Shown one piece after another: positions 36,001 through 45,000 of a DNA stretch of 64,000 nt. A program made the position numbers. The DNA comes from an uncultured Nitrospiraceae bacterium. Lineage in GTDB: Bacteria > Nitrospirota > Thermodesulfovibrionia > Thermodesulfovibrionales > SM23-35. Every line of letters begins with the position of its first letter. The stretch's first letter is position 1. The DNA lies in NCBI GenBank assembly GCA_963727775.1, contig CAVSHB010000002.1, forward strand, positions 512,001 through 576,000. Reading direction: 5' to 3'.

Positions 36001-39000
36001 AAAAGGCGGGAAACTTCTCCTGATGCCCGGCGATGGCATCGGGAATCAGGACCGGATATTTATTTCTTATCCCGCGCTTCTGAAGGACGTTAAGAAGGGA
36101 GACGGAATCCTCCTGGACGACGGCCTGATCCAGCTTGCCGTTATCGGAAAGGCAATAAACGCCTTGAGGACAAAGGTAATAGAAGGGGGTACATTAAGAG
36201 ACAGAAAGGGGGTCAATTTCCCCGGGCTGAAATTGTCCGTCAGATCGTTTACCGCAAAGGACAAAGAGGACCTGCTGTTTGGAATTCATATGGGAATAGA
36301 TTACGTCGCCATATCTTTTGTGCGGGAGGCCGGTGATATAAGAAAGGTCAGAGATTTGCTTAAAAGAAAGAATCAGCATGTCCCAATCATTGCGAAAATA
36401 GAGAAGCCCGAGGCATTGGATAATATTGATGAAATACTCTCAGAGGCTGACGGAATAATGATAGCAAGGGGAGACCTCGGCGTGGAGATGCCCCCTGAAG
36501 AAGTCCCGCTGATTCAGAAAGGGCTGATTGAAAAGGCCAACAACAAAGGTAAGACCGTGATCACCGCAACACAAATGCTCGAATCAATGACGGAACATCT
36601 TAGGCCGACAAGAGCGGAGGCAACGGACGTCGCCAATGCGGTGCTTGACGGGACAGATGCGTTAATGCTCTCTGCTGAAACGGCAACCGGGAATTACCCT
36701 GTTGAGACGGTAAGAATGATGGACAGGATTATACGGCATACAGAGTATATGAAGGCGGGCGCGGCTTCATATACGCGTGGCAATACATATGCAGAAGCTA
36801 CTGCGGATGCGGCCTGCAGGGCTGCCGAGGATATAGATGCAAAAGTGCTGGTTGCCTTTACCCAATCGGGTTTTACTGCAAGGCTTTTGTCGAAGTTCAG
36901 ACCCGGAGTCCCGATTATTGCTTTTGCCCCTGATGAAAAAATAAGAAACAGGGGATGCATCTATTGGGGAGTCACGCCGAAAATAATGAAGCTGCCCGCA
37001 ACTACTGACGAGATGATATCCGAAGTGGAAAGGCTGCTGGTGAAGGAGCATATTGTGAGAAAAGGCGACAGCATCGTAATTACGTCGAGTTCGCCGTTAT
37101 CAACGCAAGGAAAGACTAATTTCATGAAACTCCACAGGATAGAAGAATAAAATTGTATTATATCGAGGAGAGATGAATATCTTCAAAAAATCGGATGACA
37201 AACAACAGCTTGCCGCCATAGAAGAATTCCGGCAAAAGATCGCCTCGGCAAATATGCCGCCCAATGTCCTGCAGATCGCCGAGAAAGAACTTGATATGCT
37301 GTCGAAGATAAGCCCGGCAACAGCGGAATATACAATAAGTCTCACTTATATTGATTATCTGGTCGGCCTTCCCTGGAACAAAAAGACATCCGACAATCTC
37401 GATCTCGAAAGGGCCGAAAGTATTTTGAATGAAAGGCATTATGGCCTGAGTGAAGTCAAGGAAAGGATCATCGAGCACCTGGCGGTCAAGATACTGGTGA
37501 TGAACAAAAGACCCGTGATCCTGGTGGTTGATGATGAGGAGATTGCGAGGAACAATCTTGAGCATATCCTGGAAAAAGAAGACTATACGGTGGTCGTCGC
37601 AAAAAACGGGATGGAGGCCGTTGAAAAGATAGAGACCTCTGTTTTTGATGTTGTCCTGACCGATCTTAAGATGGAAAAAGTCAACGGGATCGACGTTCTT
37701 GAAAAGACAAAAAGCAAATATCCGGACACACAGGTCATTATGATTACCGCTTATGCAGCGGTTGATACGGCCATAGAGGCCATGAAAAGAGGTGCGTTCC
37801 ATTATATCGCAAAACCGTTCAGGCTTGAAGAGGTAAGATCGACCGTTAAACAGGCGCTTGACAGGAAGCTTTCTTCGGTTTCCGCAAAGGGATCTATCCT
37901 TTGTTTCTCAGGTCCTCCAGGTACCGGCAAGACTTCGCTGGGCAAGTCCGTTGCGGAGGCTTTGGGTAGAAAATTCGCGAGGATTTCGGTTGGAGGTATG
38001 AAAGACGAGGCCGAGATAAGAGGCCATAGGAGGACATACGCCGGCGCGATGCCCGGACGGATCATCGAAGAAATCCGCCGCGCGGAGTTTTCCAACCCCG
38101 TCATCATGCTGGATGAAGCAGACAAAATCGGTCAGGATTTTAAAGGGGATCCCGCTTCTGCATTGCTGGAGGTCCTCGATCCGGAGCAGAACCGGAGTTT
38201 CATCGACCATTACCTGGACGTGCCGTTTGATCTTTCAAATGTCATGTTTATTGTGACGGCCAATATTGCAGACAATATCCAGGAACCCCTCAGGGACCGC
38301 ATGGAAATAATAGATTTCTCCGGTTATACGGAAGATGAAAAAACGAAGATAGCGATGCGCCACCTGGTACCTAAACAGATCCGGGAACAGGGACTGTCGG
38401 ATTATCCGCCTGAATTTGACGTTGAGGCAGTAGTTAAGGTAATCAACGATTATACCAGGGAGGCCGGCACAAGGAACCTTGAAAGGCAGATTTCCACTAT
38501 CTGCCGGAAGATTGCGACGGAGTTTGTACATCACAGAGAAACGAAACGGAGTATTAAGGTGACACCGGAGCTGGTCCAGAGGTTTTTAGGCCCGAGAAGG
38601 TATTACCTTGAGGTCGCGGATGAAAAGAATAAGGTCGGTGTTGTGACGGGTCTCGTATGGACCGAGGCAGGCGGGGATATAATCTTTGTAGAGGCGGCGC
38701 GGATGAAAGGCGGGAGAGACCTCATCCTCACCGGGTCGCTCGGAAACGTTATGCGCGAATCCGCCCAGGCGGCCTTAAGCTATATACGTAGCAACGCCGC
38801 TTTTTTCAATATCCCGGAAGATGTGTTCGAGAATAGCGATATACACATCCACGTCCCTGCCGGAGCCATTCCGAAGGACGGCCCTTCCGCCGGCGTTACA
38901 ATAGCGGCTTCCCTCATCTCGCTTTTAAAGGGAAGTCCCGCAAGACGCGACGTCGCGATTTCAGGCGAGATAACCTTGAGCGGCCGGATACTTCCGGTCG

Positions 39001-42000: not shown

Positions 42001-45000
42001 GTCCTGAGGGTCGGCGGAACAGAATCCTTAAAGGTAGATGTCAGATTTATTGCGGCAAGCAACAGGGACATTCATGACGCTATAAAGAACGGAAGGTTCC
42101 GGCAGGACCTATATTTCAGACTGAATGTCGTTTCCCTGCATATTCCGCCTTTGTCGGAAAGAAGGGACGATATCCCGCTCTTGAGCTATTATTTCCTGAA
42201 GAAATATGCGGCCGTAATGAAAAAAGATGTTACCGAGATATCCGAGGACGCAATGGGTCTGCTCATGAATTATGATCTGCCCGGCAACGTCAGGGAGCTT
42301 GAAAATATCATTGAAAGAGGAGTTGCCCTTGCCAACGGGAGAACCATAGAGATAGCCCATCTGCCCGAAGACCTGAGAGAACTGAGGATACAGACATTCA
42401 GAAAGAAGGAAGGCAAGATCCCTTCCCTTGAAGACCAGGAGACGGCCTACATAAAATGGGTCTTAAATGAGGTCGGCGGCAATAAAACCATCGCGGCCCA
42501 GATATTGGGAATAGACAGGGTATCACTCTGGAGGAAGCTCAAGAAATACGGACTGGACCCTGAATGAAGCAACGACCTGCCCCGGGCGTTTTACATATCC
42601 ACCCTTGTCATGACCCCGTGGAGTTTATATGGCGGCAGTTTGTAGAATTGAACGAACGCCGGGGTGAGCTTCTTGATAAACGAGAATATTTTCCAGACCG
42701 GATTTTCCGTCACGATGTCCTCAAGCCCGTAAAAAATCGTCTTTTCGTCGATCCCTGATTCCTTCAGGAGATCTTCAATATCAGGCACCTCCATATACCC
42801 CACCTGAATTTCGAATACCCGCAAGCCGTGCCCGGGGTCTTCTTTAAAAAAGCCTGTCAGACCAAAGGGATCATCCCGCTTTATTATGGAAACCATGATA
42901 TTTTCTTCATAAAGGATATTATTTACGAACATGCTTCGTATCATAAAAGGAGGTATCTCATTGGGATCCTTCAGAAAAAAGAGGGAAACCCCTCTTAATT
43001 TAGGCATGGTTTTGTAAGCAAGATTGTATCTTTCAAGAAAGTTATGAAGCGGCACGGGTTTCAATATTTTATAAAGCCTTTTTTGGCCGCTGGTATAAAT
43101 GATAACGGTGATGAAAGGGAAGGCCCCGATGATAATCGACCAGTAACCCCCGTGAGGTATCTTGTAAAAATTCGACACGAGGAACGCAATATCTACGCAC
43201 GTGACGAGAAATGATGCAATGGCCAGTCCGTTTTTCCTCTTCAGGTGAAAAATCCATGTCATCATGATTCCCGTGAGGGTCATTGTTCCGGTGACCGCCA
43301 AACCGTAGGCGGCGGCAAGCCGGCTGGATTCCCTGAATTCAACCATAATAAACAAAACGGATATGAGAAGAAACCAGTTAACAAAACCTATGTAAATCTG
43401 TGACCTCAATTCGGTGGATGTATAGTCGATCTTGAAAAGCGGCATTATATGGGTGGTTATCCCCTGGTAAACAATCGAGAACATCCCGCTGATCATGGCC
43501 TGAGAGGCTATCACAGTCGCAATAATACTGAGGACCAGGAAGGGTATATACAGTGTCCGGGTGGTATGGAATATCATTTCAAAAAGGACATTCTTAGAAG
43601 CAGGGTGCCCGATGAGGAACGCTCCCTGTCCGAGATAATTGATCAAAAGGGCAACAAATACAAGATACCATGCATGGATGATGGGCTTCCGTCCCAAATG
43701 TCCCATATCGGCATATAACGCCTCACCTCCTGTTGCACAGAGTATGACTTCAGAAAGCACAAAAAATCCTGTGAGGCCGTTTTCATAAAGAAATCTTAAG
43801 GCATAGTATGGGTTTATAGCCCGTATCACAACCGGGGAATCAGCGATTGACATTAAGCCGGAGACAGACAAAGATGTAAACCAAACCAGCATCAAAGGTC
43901 CGAACGCCCAGGACACTTTCTCTGTGCCCTTTTTCTGGAAGGAGAACAGCACTATTGCAATTATCCCGGCGGCAAGAATAAGTAATTCCTGTTTTGTGCC
44001 TTCCAGTCCGGGGATTAAGAGTGATCCCTCAACGGCGCTCAGGATACTGATGGCAGGCGTAATTACACCATCGCCGATGAGCAGGGATATGCCGATAAAA
44101 GAAAGAAAAGATACAAATGCCGCCTTCCTGCCTGACTTGAGCAACGGCACAAGTATTTCCTTAAGGACTATGGTGCCACCCTCACCCTTTTTCCCGAGGC
44201 TCATTGCAAGCCATGCGTACTCAACAGTGACGAGTATTACAAGGGTCCATACTATAAGGGAAAGGACCCCCATTACATGGGCTTCAGTAGGCTTTGTGAG
44301 GAGAAAGATAACCGTCAGTGTATAGATCGGGCTGGTTCCGATATCACCGAAGACAAGGCCAAGGGATTTTATTATTCCTCTGAAAGAAGGCTCTTTGCTG
44401 ATCATATTTTAAATCTGCAAACTAAAAGGTAGTGGGATTTCCCACTACCTTTTGCAATTCCAGAAAAGGACGAATACCAGGCTAATACAAAAAGGCATTA
44501 CTTAACAGCGTCTTTAAAAGCCTTCCCCGCAGAGAACTTGGGGACCTTGGCAGCTTTAATGGTGATTGTTTCGCCCGTCCTCGGGTTTCTTCCCTTCCGG
44601 GCTTTTCTCTTTGAGAGAGAGAATGTGCCGAAACCGACGAGAGCAACTTTGTTCCCTTTCTTCACGGATTTCTCAACCCCGTCGATGAAAGAGTCCAGCG
44701 CTTCTCCTGCAACAGCCTTTGAAATCCCTGCATCCTTAGCCATTTTTTCTATCAGGTCAGCTTTTGTCATAAATACCTCCTCTAAATATTTTTTTAAGTA
44801 TACACGATTATTCATTTAATGAAAATACTTTTTAGTATACGGAAAAGATTTTCCCGATAAAAAAATATTTTGGATGGAGGTGGGCAGCCAGTAGGGAGGG
44901 GCCTGACTGGCTGCCGGAAAGATGCAGAAAGCTTGTTCTTTCACTTTTTAGAATATAAGAAAAATATGAAGAAATGACGAAGAAAATATGAAGAAATTAT

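Follow-up and report, generated by a model that had tools for sequence, protein, structure and literature searches.

A receiver-bearing Lon protease beside a histidine kinase and a sigma54 regulator in an uncultured Nitrospiraceae bacterium: a candidate phosphorylation-gated member of a known family

Is a Lon protease that carries a receiver domain inside its ATPase module switched by two-component phosphorylation, and what would it degrade? This question is raised by one gene, hereafter Lon-REC, in a 64,000-nucleotide stretch of DNA from an uncultured Nitrospiraceae bacterium (the window, to which coordinates refer unless another contig is named). A preliminary description of the locus implied that it was new. 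However, Lon-REC belongs to an already known family, and is not a new kind of system. Rajeev 2011 described DVU3303 of Desulfovibrio vulgaris with the kinase DVU3304 and the sigma54 regulator DVU3305, proposed that its activity is phosphorylation-dependent, and reported orthologues, Thermodesulfovibrio being among the genomes named (PMC3333781). The architecture, its partners and the hypothesis have thus been in print since 2011. The three proteins form a three-component system, with DVU3302-3298 as target operon (PMC3333781; PMC10102598; PMC4641369). A literature search for the biochemistry of receiver-bearing Lons found none. If the idea is true, a histidine kinase would switch an AAA+ protease directly, an unusual kind of output for a signalling system. 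The present analysis contributes exact domain boundaries, a good structural model, a possible partner (adaptor or substrate) bearing a motif of six residues, and a paralogue that is naturally dead.

Domain organisation of Lon-REC

The features of the locus are as follows (coordinates, strand, description).

35720..37150, +, pyruvate kinase (pyk), 22 bp upstream of the Lon gene; given for context
37173..39173, +, Lon-REC protease of DVU3303 type, without N-terminal globular domain and long helix, with inserted receiver
37173..37193, +, extreme N-terminal motif [FILW][FL][KRGS][KR] of Lon-REC, in 86/95 full-length relatives
37185..37505, +, three-helix bundle and helix running into the receiver, residues 5-111 (alignment to ordinary Lon; model)
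37509..37871, +, receiver domain, residues 113-233 (PF00072, E 5e-30)
37893..38612, +, AAA+ core and lid (Pfam; residue conservation)
38625..39170, +, S16 protease domain (PF05362, E 1.5e-81)
39241..39420, -, 59-aa small protein gene, candidate adaptor or substrate of Lon-REC
39450..39466, -, small-gene promoter of sigma54 type (-24 element invariant in 10/10 aligned gaps; -12 element atypical)
39546..39560, no strand, predicted palindromic activator site of DVU3305 type (1 mismatch to consensus; kept in relatives)
39646..39681, no strand, conserved half-site and imperfect palindrome before the kinase gene (aligned relatives)
39698..41203, +, membrane histidine kinase of DVU3304 type (HAMP, HisKA, HATPase_c)
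41200..42567, +, sigma54-dependent response regulator of DVU3305 type, REC-AAA-HTH with GAFTGA (Pfam; receiver comparison)

The Lon-REC reading frame (37173-39173, + strand) encodes 666 aa. Pfam places REC at residues 116-225, AAA at 243-380, Lon_lid at 405-458 and Lon_C at 462-665, and a Pfam search for the Lon N-domain gave no match. The TIGR00763 score is 742.5 for a cut-off of 608.05, and the best fold matches are LonA structures. Upon alignment with the ordinary 807-aa Lon of the same genome, Lon-REC starts near residue 250 of the latter, its receiver is inserted between LAVK and the Walker A strand, and its residues 241-666 are about 55% identical to the reference. Pfam, TIGR00763 and the alignment confirm the earlier claim of an intact Lon without Lon_N and with a complete REC just before the Walker A strand. 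The sizes then given, an insert of about 127 aa and 256 missing N-terminal residues, are close to those measured here (126 aa and about 250). The receiver does not stand in place of the N-domain, as had been stated, because some 105 Lon residues, the three-helix bundle and the next helix, precede it.

Lon-REC thus shares with LonA (endopeptidase La; TIGR00763, MEROPS S16), a hexameric ATP-dependent protease, the three-helix bundle, the AAA+ module and the Ser-Lys protease domain, but it lacks the N-terminal globular domain and the long helix, and has gained the 126-aa receiver and the short N-terminal motif. Whether this motif is a membrane anchor or a pore plug is a matter of guesswork. The natural start lies close to the truncation point of the engineered AAAP (M. 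taiwanensis residues 242-793). According to PMC8087443, M. taiwanensis Lon deprived of its N-domain retains its ATPase and peptidase activities and still degrades casein, but no longer acts on thermally damaged substrates. Judged from its sequence, Lon-REC resembles in its working such an N-domain-less LonA rather than canonical LonA, even though it scores above the TIGR00763 cut-off.

The residues expected of each part are present. As in CheY-like receivers, there is an acidic pocket (D120, D121), a predicted phospho-acceptor (D164, 37662-37664), T192 at the Thr/Ser position and a Lys-Pro pair (K214-P215), together with Y211. The AAA+ module has the putative LonA residues Walker A K253 (37929-37931), pore-loop Y289, Walker B D314/E315 and arginine finger R376, and the predicted protease dyad is S572 (38886-38888) with K615 (39015-39017). 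D120, D121, D164, T192, K214, K253, D314, E315, R376, S572 and K615 are each kept in 120/120 top homologues. The preliminary count thus stands for receiver and Walker residues; for S572 it was 113, which becomes 120, and K615 is equally invariant in this larger set. Among more distant homologues, 75-76 of 76 have conserved the receiver and catalytic residues, and all 76 have D164, K214 and Y289.

Contrary to the first impression of a poor structure model, the prediction obtained with a 41-row alignment is good (pLDDT 81.8, pTM 0.71). Before the receiver it has five helices (residues 5-25, 30-43, 51-64, 78-88 and 93-111), the last of which runs unbroken from the Lon part into the receiver; the receiver itself has five strands and five helices, like a CheY-type receiver. 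The exit linker (237-240) is of low model confidence.

Range and kinship of the receiver

We found junction-spanning Lon-REC proteins in 48/151 genomes of the class, own genome counted (E < 1e-78), 45 of them with a frame of at least 665 aa; these counts, about a third of this Nitrospirota class, replace the earlier figure of 29/100 full-length forms. The same junction occurs in 42/101 genomes of the class of a Desulfovibrio record, and sulfur-cycling anaerobes thus commonly carry a member of the family. No Lon-REC was seen at E 1e-55 in 121 genomes from the family of a Rhodocyclaceae record, in a search run without positive control. One might suspect a non-functional chimera, produced by decay or misassembly, given the label 'protease La, truncation' in the TIGR annotation of DVU3303, and the pyk-then-Lon arrangement of the window, seen in none of 80 related loci. 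We give this virtually no credence: it is refuted by the recurrence of the architecture in two classes with residues intact, and by a copy 98% identical in a separate record (P0004).

Insert length is strictly held. Residues 70-262 show zero indels in 43 sequences at 51-80% identity. The insert spacing is 150 in all 83 measurable Lon-REC proteins (12 of 95 could not be measured by the spacing pattern) and in 11/11 further loci, 3 of which were already among the 83, whereas in ordinary Lons it is 24 in 43 of 53 measurable cases and ranges from 24 to 41. The N-domain was present in 0/80 related loci.

Where does the receiver come from? It is 53-54% identical to the receiver of the neighbouring sigma54 regulator and 55% to that of the regulator's paralogue, and at most 46% to the others among 47 receivers compared. 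Lon receivers form one clade with 40/49 sigma54-regulator receivers from such islands and only 2/47 other receivers of the genome (support 0.86). E122, N128, L129 and H131 of helix 1 are common to both kinds, and their alpha4-beta5-alpha5 sequence is nearly equal. This likeness suggests that the Lon receiver is phosphorylated by the cognate kinase.

The reading of a protease switched by a two-component system is partly supported, by invariant receiver residues, fixed linkers and receiver kinship. We consider it somewhat probable that Lon-REC is a kinase-phosphorylated, receiver-gated, dedicated protease, acting as third component of a signalling island. The island would comprise the sensor kinase, the sigma54 activator and, as target operon, genes for an anion transporter (TauE or SLC13), Usp proteins and small proteins with the motif; the kinase would pass phosphate both to the activator and to D164. 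Linkers of fixed length would tie the receiver on one side to the helix that precedes the ATPase core, and on the other to the first strand of this core; at the subunit interface, this strand adjoins that of the arginine finger. With such a position, phosphorylation most likely alters ring assembly or ATPase coupling, and would in this way gate proteolysis; activation appears distinctly likelier than inhibition. Having no N-domain, Lon-REC would leave general quality control to the ordinary Lon of the genome, and its substrates may be disordered or delivered proteins from its own island.

Alternatively, the receiver could merely localise the protease or buffer the pathway as a phosphate sink, proteolysis being constitutive. 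The insertion site is a variable loop in ordinary Lons, and the exit linker is modelled with low confidence. Moreover, some relatives in one Nitrospirota family have a derived, short paralogue in which ATPase motifs and protease are lost and the receiver is intact (15/15; one example is L188:5746-6882), so that a receiver can be selected for without proteolysis. But a passive tether is not expected to hold exact linker lengths across three classes, the unbroken predicted entry helix also speaks against one, and we regard docking or sink as quite unlikely. A still less likely possibility is that the receiver replaces the N-domain in substrate recognition: it would pair with the phosphorylated sigma54 regulator and degrade it, which would turn the response off. 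Receivers dimerise via the alpha4-beta5-alpha5 face, and this face is nearly equal in the two paralogues. Nevertheless, loss of the protease should then oppose loss of the regulator, and the three D. vulgaris mutants behave alike in the data of PMC10102598, unless the insertions are polar.

Locus layout and the D. vulgaris system

The HAMP histidine kinase (39698-41203) and sigma54 regulator (41200-42567) lie next to Lon-REC, as the preliminary description had it. Being encoded together holds for adjacency only: a 524-bp gap with the divergent 59-aa gene and promoter elements separates Lon from the kinase, so that Lon is probably not co-transcribed with the kinase-regulator pair here. Since layout varies among relatives, we take the missing single operon for a rearrangement and not for a defining trait. 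Among 36 well-flanked loci (at least 5 kb on each side), a kinase or regulator is found within 1.5 kb in 18, weaker than the 17/19 reported before, and anywhere within the locus in 32; 31 of the 36 have a transporter and 34 have a motif protein. The periplasmic part of the kinase is a four-helix bundle with an invariant RRxEKN motif, for which the best Foldseek match is QseE (E 4.5e-3), PcaY matches being weaker. The convergent gene Kup (42591-44405) appears unrelated.

The site at 39546-39560 ranks 2 among 170 genome sites with a matrix built from 9 relatives, the window being left out. Taken alone, the consensus gives no significant signal over the window: 4 matches at no more than 2 mismatches for 1.6 expected, with 7/100 shuffles scoring as high. 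No activator site of at least 11 bits was found in the 2.2 kb upstream of the Lon gene in this genome.

Several likenesses tie the locus to the DVU system: DVU3303 is also a receiver-bearing Lon (2109 bp, about 702 aa, compared with 666 aa here), with an adjacent histidine kinase and sigma54 response regulator, and the palindrome conforms to the type of the published DVU3305 sites. The target operon, with genes of 180, 543, 294 and 1071 bp and one for UspA, corresponds in these lengths to the genes found beside relatives, namely a 59-aa protein, proteins of about 160-185 and 85-105 aa, TauE and Usp, and the small gene of the window has the length of DVU3302 (180 bp). From length and position, DVU3299 would be TauE. 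In a Desulfovibrio record (L119), the Usp-TauE-small genes are divergent from Lon-kinase-regulator. The window differs in that Lon lies behind nadB-pyk, a divergent small gene precedes the kinase-regulator pair, and the kinase has a three-cysteine insert within HATPase_c. In addition, whereas small proteins, anion transporter and UspA form an operon adjacent to the system in relatives, only the small gene is adjacent here, and the target operons are dispersed elsewhere in the genome (C1 331-338 kb, C2 672-675 kb and C2 682-684 kb). Lon-REC is a putative orthologue of DVU3303, judged from gene lengths, layout, site and Desulfovibrio-class relatives. A search for the D. vulgaris locus with a primer from the paper's supplement returned 27 unrelated matches.

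In PMC10102598, mutants of DVU3303, 3304 and 3305 have pairwise cofitness above 0.9, and on chlorate all three gain fitness while a mutant of the target DVU3299 loses it. A simple chain in which the system is on and the transporter goes up does not fit these opposite signs. Cofitness may reflect polarity, DVU3303 being first in the listed operon. Removal by Lon of an anti-kinase like Sda (PMC10730256) would fit cofitness, not the opposite sign of DVU3299, and was retained only as a sub-case. With mutants and a chlorate phenotype at hand, D. vulgaris is well suited for tests.

A candidate partner

The 59-aa protein belongs to no Pfam or NCBIfam family, only to unnamed atlas clusters, and its PDB match is ParD-like and non-significant (E 0.09). 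It consists of a helical FAExGE motif, a variable charged linker and an RKELRA tail (39262-39279). The copy in the window has a weakened ribosome-binding site, and a second copy lies at C2:675265-675441. Motif proteins of the island are present in 99/151 class genomes, for 48/151 with Lon-REC; exclusivity to Lon-REC was thus rejected, and in many genomes the island works without Lon.

The tail Arg-x-x-Leu-Arg-Ala is found in 32/37 Lon-positive and 3/32 Lon-negative genomes, which amounts to 4 independent contrasts (p=0.125), with 3-4 of the 4 pairs in the same direction. No small protein was found at 4/41 Lon-positive loci, nor by pattern in 20/47 kinase rows, partly a limit of the pattern itself. 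A tail matrix built only from non-Nitrospirota loci shifted to another segment and gave a modest separation of the groups with overlapping scores (medians 3.7 versus -1.1), the copy of the window scoring -0.9; no weight is placed on it. We tentatively propose this protein, the best candidate partner, as a substrate or adaptor that Lon-REC would recognise by its conserved tail.

Precedents exist for proteolysis under a receiver domain or under a small protein that docks by a C-terminal tail: SspB, RssB and CpdR with ClpXP, and SmiA, LarA and HspQ with Lon. There, receivers and adaptors are proteins of their own and dock on the protease N-domain, whereas in Lon-REC the receiver is within the chain and the N-domain is gone. 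The SspB tail docks on ClpX. This raises the doubtful alternative that the 59-aa protein also docks on ClpX instead of Lon-REC, or that its tail marks one island lineage, the link to Lon being indirect. Some tails, RPELRV and RPVLRV for example, are similar to the C-terminal peptide of SspB (RGGRPALRVVK; PMC8808172), the genome encodes a ClpX zinc-binding domain, and Lon-negative tails are partly common within clades. However, ClpX is present in 10/14 control genomes, so that a ClpX-docking tail should not disappear with the loss of Lon-REC; yet the tail is missing from 18/18 Lon-negative rows, and the independent pairs agree with this.

Returning to Lon-REC as partner, a joint reading can be sketched, which is on the whole unlikely: the N-domain would be replaced in trans by the 59-aa protein as adaptor or priming substrate. 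Its FAExGE helix would bind motif-bearing island proteins or the kinase, and its R-x-x-L-R-A/V tail would dock on phosphorylated Lon. A single kinase would gate the protease twice over, directly at D164 and by way of sigma54-driven synthesis of the adaptor. The dead paralogue of one Nitrospirota family would be a naturally occurring subunit that poisons the ring under the control of phosphorylation.

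Architecture and ancestry of Lon-REC

The Lon-REC locus of the window comprises the following genes.

Genes of the Lon-REC locus (window positions)
37173-39173, + strand: Lon-REC, 666 aa; Pfam REC 116-225, AAA 243-380, Lon_lid and Lon_C
39241-39420, divergent: small protein of 59 aa, downstream of the Lon-REC gene
39698-41203: HAMP kinase, downstream of the Lon-REC gene
41200-42567: sigma54 regulator, downstream of the Lon-REC gene

The genome has one ordinary Lon (807 aa, contig C4). Upon alignment, Lon-REC starts near its residue 250 and carries a single large insert, after LAVK and before the Walker A strand, where the preliminary description had placed it. 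The KERI motif and Walker A are spaced by 150 in all 83 measurable Lon-REC relatives (12 of 95 were not measurable), versus 24 in 43 of the 53 ordinary Lons that could be measured, which makes the insert 126 aa long. Residues 70-262 are gap-free in an alignment of 43 sequences, 51-80% identical. Receiver, ATPase and protease residues are conserved in 120/120 top homologues and the Pfam search finds no Lon N-domain, which bears out the description of an intact Lon devoid of Lon_N; in a wider homologue set, D120, D121, D164, K214, K253, D314, E315, R376, S572 and K615 are conserved in 75-76 of 76. The predicted structure, previously called poor, in fact reaches a pLDDT of 81.8 and a pTM of 0.71, with LonA structures as top fold matches; in this model a single helix (93-111) leads from Lon into the receiver, and the exit loop (237-240) is weak. 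Judged by sequence, Lon-REC is real, intact and conserved. A short N-terminal motif, [FILW][FL][KRGS][KR] (window 37173-37193), precedes a variable linker and is conserved in 86 of 95 Lon-REC proteins; we take it to be reminiscent of amphipathic membrane anchors, e.g. that of EIIA-Glc.

Within the window's class, 48 of 151 genomes have the junction-spanning form, that of the window included (E below 1e-78; 3 frames short or cut). Presence across the class, first put at 29/100 genomes, is thus maintained with a revised figure. The form is also present in 42/101 genomes of the class to which a Desulfovibrio record belongs, and Lon-REC in named Desulfobacterales, Desulfobulbales, Syntrophobacteraceae and Desulfomonilaceae records. 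None was found among 121 genomes from the family of a Rhodocyclaceae record, in a search run without positive control.

The architecture is not new. Lon-REC belongs to a system published in 2011, same hypothesis included, which removes the novelty first implied for a phospho-switched Lon: in D. vulgaris, Rajeev et al. (PMC3333781) group DVU3303, described by them as a response regulator 'containing a lon protease', with DVU3304 and DVU3305 in one three-component system. One Desulfovibrio record has a layout identical to that of the DVU3303 system, and the D. vulgaris gene lengths (180, 543, 294, 1071 and 2109 bp) agree with those of the genes of the conserved locus, hereafter the island, the two being likened by length and layout. 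The regulon is tabulated in PMC4641369. In the fitness data of PMC10102598, the three genes have cofitness above 0.9 and their loss brings a gain on chlorate, while loss of the target DVU3299 is costly (-2.3); these data leave the sign of the circuit unfixed, and the effects may be polar. A literature search, with most subscription journals outside its reach, found no biochemical study of the family.

The island and its regulon

Among the 36 related loci flanked by at least 5 kb on each side, 32 have a kinase or regulator, a TauE or SLC13 transporter is found in 31, and 34 encode a protein sharing the FAExGE helical motif of the small protein. The neighbourhood first reported (17 of 19 loci with kinase or regulator within 1.5 kb) therefore stands, but not its closeness, found in 18/36. 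Over all 80 loci the counts are 54 for kinase or regulator (35 within 1.5 kb), 46 for the transporter and 64 for the motif protein.

A sigma54 -24 element and a palindrome, conserved in relatives, lie between the small gene and the kinase gene. With a matrix built from 9 relatives, the window site ranks second of 170 genome sites, and five more of the top ten lie upstream of motif-protein or TauE genes (contig C1 at 331.0 and 334.9 kb, the latter with two; C2 at 675.6 and 684.6 kb), indicating that the whole regulon is present in the genome, dispersed. The Lon-REC gene itself starts 22 bp after pyk, an arrangement seen in 0/80 related loci, and the matrix scan detected no site of this type upstream of it; it may be constitutively expressed in this genome.

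Several other features of these regions were recorded. Compared with 9 relatives, the small gene has a degraded ribosome-binding site (window 39421-39440); a second copy of the gene lies at C2:675265-675441. It belongs to a second island copy (C2:668628-675441), with a truncated kinase, a receiver-kinase chimera similar to the sigma54 regulator over its first 130 residues, and a single-domain receiver ending in a FAExG motif; transposase-like and integrase-like genes, recognized by eye, flank it. Another region (C1:328263-337707) contains a kinase, a sigma54 regulator, two TauE operons, Usp genes and the genome's top-scoring palindromic site; its motif gene at C1:335074 is apparently broken (64-aa frame). 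In the catalytic domain of the window kinase (about 40890-40980), the N and G1 boxes flank an insert of ~25 aa that contains three cysteines (C-x8-C-x3-C). The insert is common to a Nitrospirota subclade, one Cys being left in others; a metal or redox site is possible. A Kup potassium transporter gene (42591-44405, - strand) converges on the regulator gene, and none of the data link it to the system; in D. vulgaris, DVU3305 is also bound upstream of kdp genes (PMC3333781). Two overlapping small ORFs (33461-33992, + strand) look by eye like a BrnT/BrnA-type toxin-antitoxin pair. Large PEP-synthase-like proteins of about 860 aa, with a PPDK_N and a PEP-utiliser domain, are recurrent in the islands (L016, L021, L022, L051, L054, L079), as are proteins resembling cytidylate kinase.

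A possible phosphorylation switch

In AAA+ folds the first core strand neighbours that of the arginine finger, close to the subunit interface. The receiver is inserted directly before this strand, and this position together with the fixed-length linkers somewhat favours allosteric gating, whereby receiver phosphorylation would control Lon-REC. That the receiver serves as a tether or phosphate sink appears unlikely. Among the genome's 47 other receivers, the nearest to that of Lon are the neighbouring regulator's and one paralogue, and in a tree it clusters with island regulator receivers. Recognition of the cognate regulator via paired receivers is judged less likely still than a tether or sink. 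As for the missing N-terminus, the natural start is close to an engineered truncation at residues 241-246 (PMC10643698). According to PMC8087443, Lon deprived of its N-domain retains ATPase, peptidase and casein degradation and no longer degrades damaged folded proteins, which suggests that Lon-REC should be a selective protease. A phospho-switched Lon would be an unusual mechanism, and the two leads below make testing it feasible.

Dead paralogue and small protein

A short paralogue (15 proteins of 371-424 aa in 14 genomes of one Nitrospirota family; L188:5746-6882, L189:3218-4366, L190:13730-14878, L192-L203, P0190) retains the three-helix bundle, the receiver and the alpha/beta subdomain, with D121, D164, T192 and K214 in 15/15. 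It is without lid and protease, and has lost the arginine finger (15/15), the Walker B Glu (14/15) and the Walker A Gly (14/15). In a quick tree with long branches, a branch with SH-aLRT 98 sets these proteins apart; they are mostly divergent from a kinase of about 570 aa, and the full form coexists in 8 of the 14 genomes. The class-wide search for Lon-REC did not find the paralogue in the window genome. A natural poison subunit is conceivable, because engineered monomeric N-truncated Lon mutants join the pentamer and inhibit wild-type Lon (PMC10643698). It is equally possible that a receiver is being kept with decaying baggage, as would fit a mean pairwise identity of 0.61 in the receiver, versus 0.46 in the ATPase part and 0.34 in the bundle.

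In the small protein, a variable linker joins the conserved helical motif to a tail (RKELRA in the window). Motif proteins occur in 99/151 class genomes, and most Lon-negative islands are this island minus Lon. We compared the best-scoring copy per genome, among the matches listed, in 41 of the 47 other genomes with a junction match and in 34 without a full one; a short copy was absent in 4 and 2 of them, respectively. The tail pattern [RK]xx[LMI][RK][AVLMTP] was present in 32/37 Lon-positive versus 3/32 Lon-negative genomes with a short copy, the pattern having been picked after viewing Lon-linked copies, from which the profile was also built. One of the three exceptions has a Lon fragment at an adjacent contig end, and in another the contig ends there. 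At unseen loci of the Desulfovibrio class the tail was present, by eye, in 7/9 (no copy found in the other two), and in a further set, sharing one genome with the first, in 6/14, the other 8 having variants such as RPRVRV; among the matches listed for that class, all short stand-alone copies neighbour the Lon gene. Non-Nitrospirota Lon loci have it in 17/32 short motif proteins. In a kinase tree of 66 rows, it is found in 0/18 Lon-negative and 18/27 Lon-positive rows, 21 rows having no detected small protein. Independent Lon-loss pairs number only 4, with 3-4 concordant and 0 opposed (p=0.125), and a tail matrix trained outside Nitrospirota gives a merely modest separation. The tail-Lon association is a lead, not a result.

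The C-terminal peptide of SspB has a docking role. The tail resembles this peptide, whose sequence is given in PMC8808172, and is unlike the terminal-His degrons of ordinary Lon (PMC11986505). That the tail docks ClpX, or simply marks a lineage, is a possibility, albeit a doubtful one. The joint reading, in which the small protein would be an adaptor and the short paralogue a poison subunit, we consider rather unlikely. Finally, in a protein of locus L306 (genome G180, C7:349000-351000) the FAExGE-type motif occurs four times in tandem, which suggests that it is a repeatable interaction unit.
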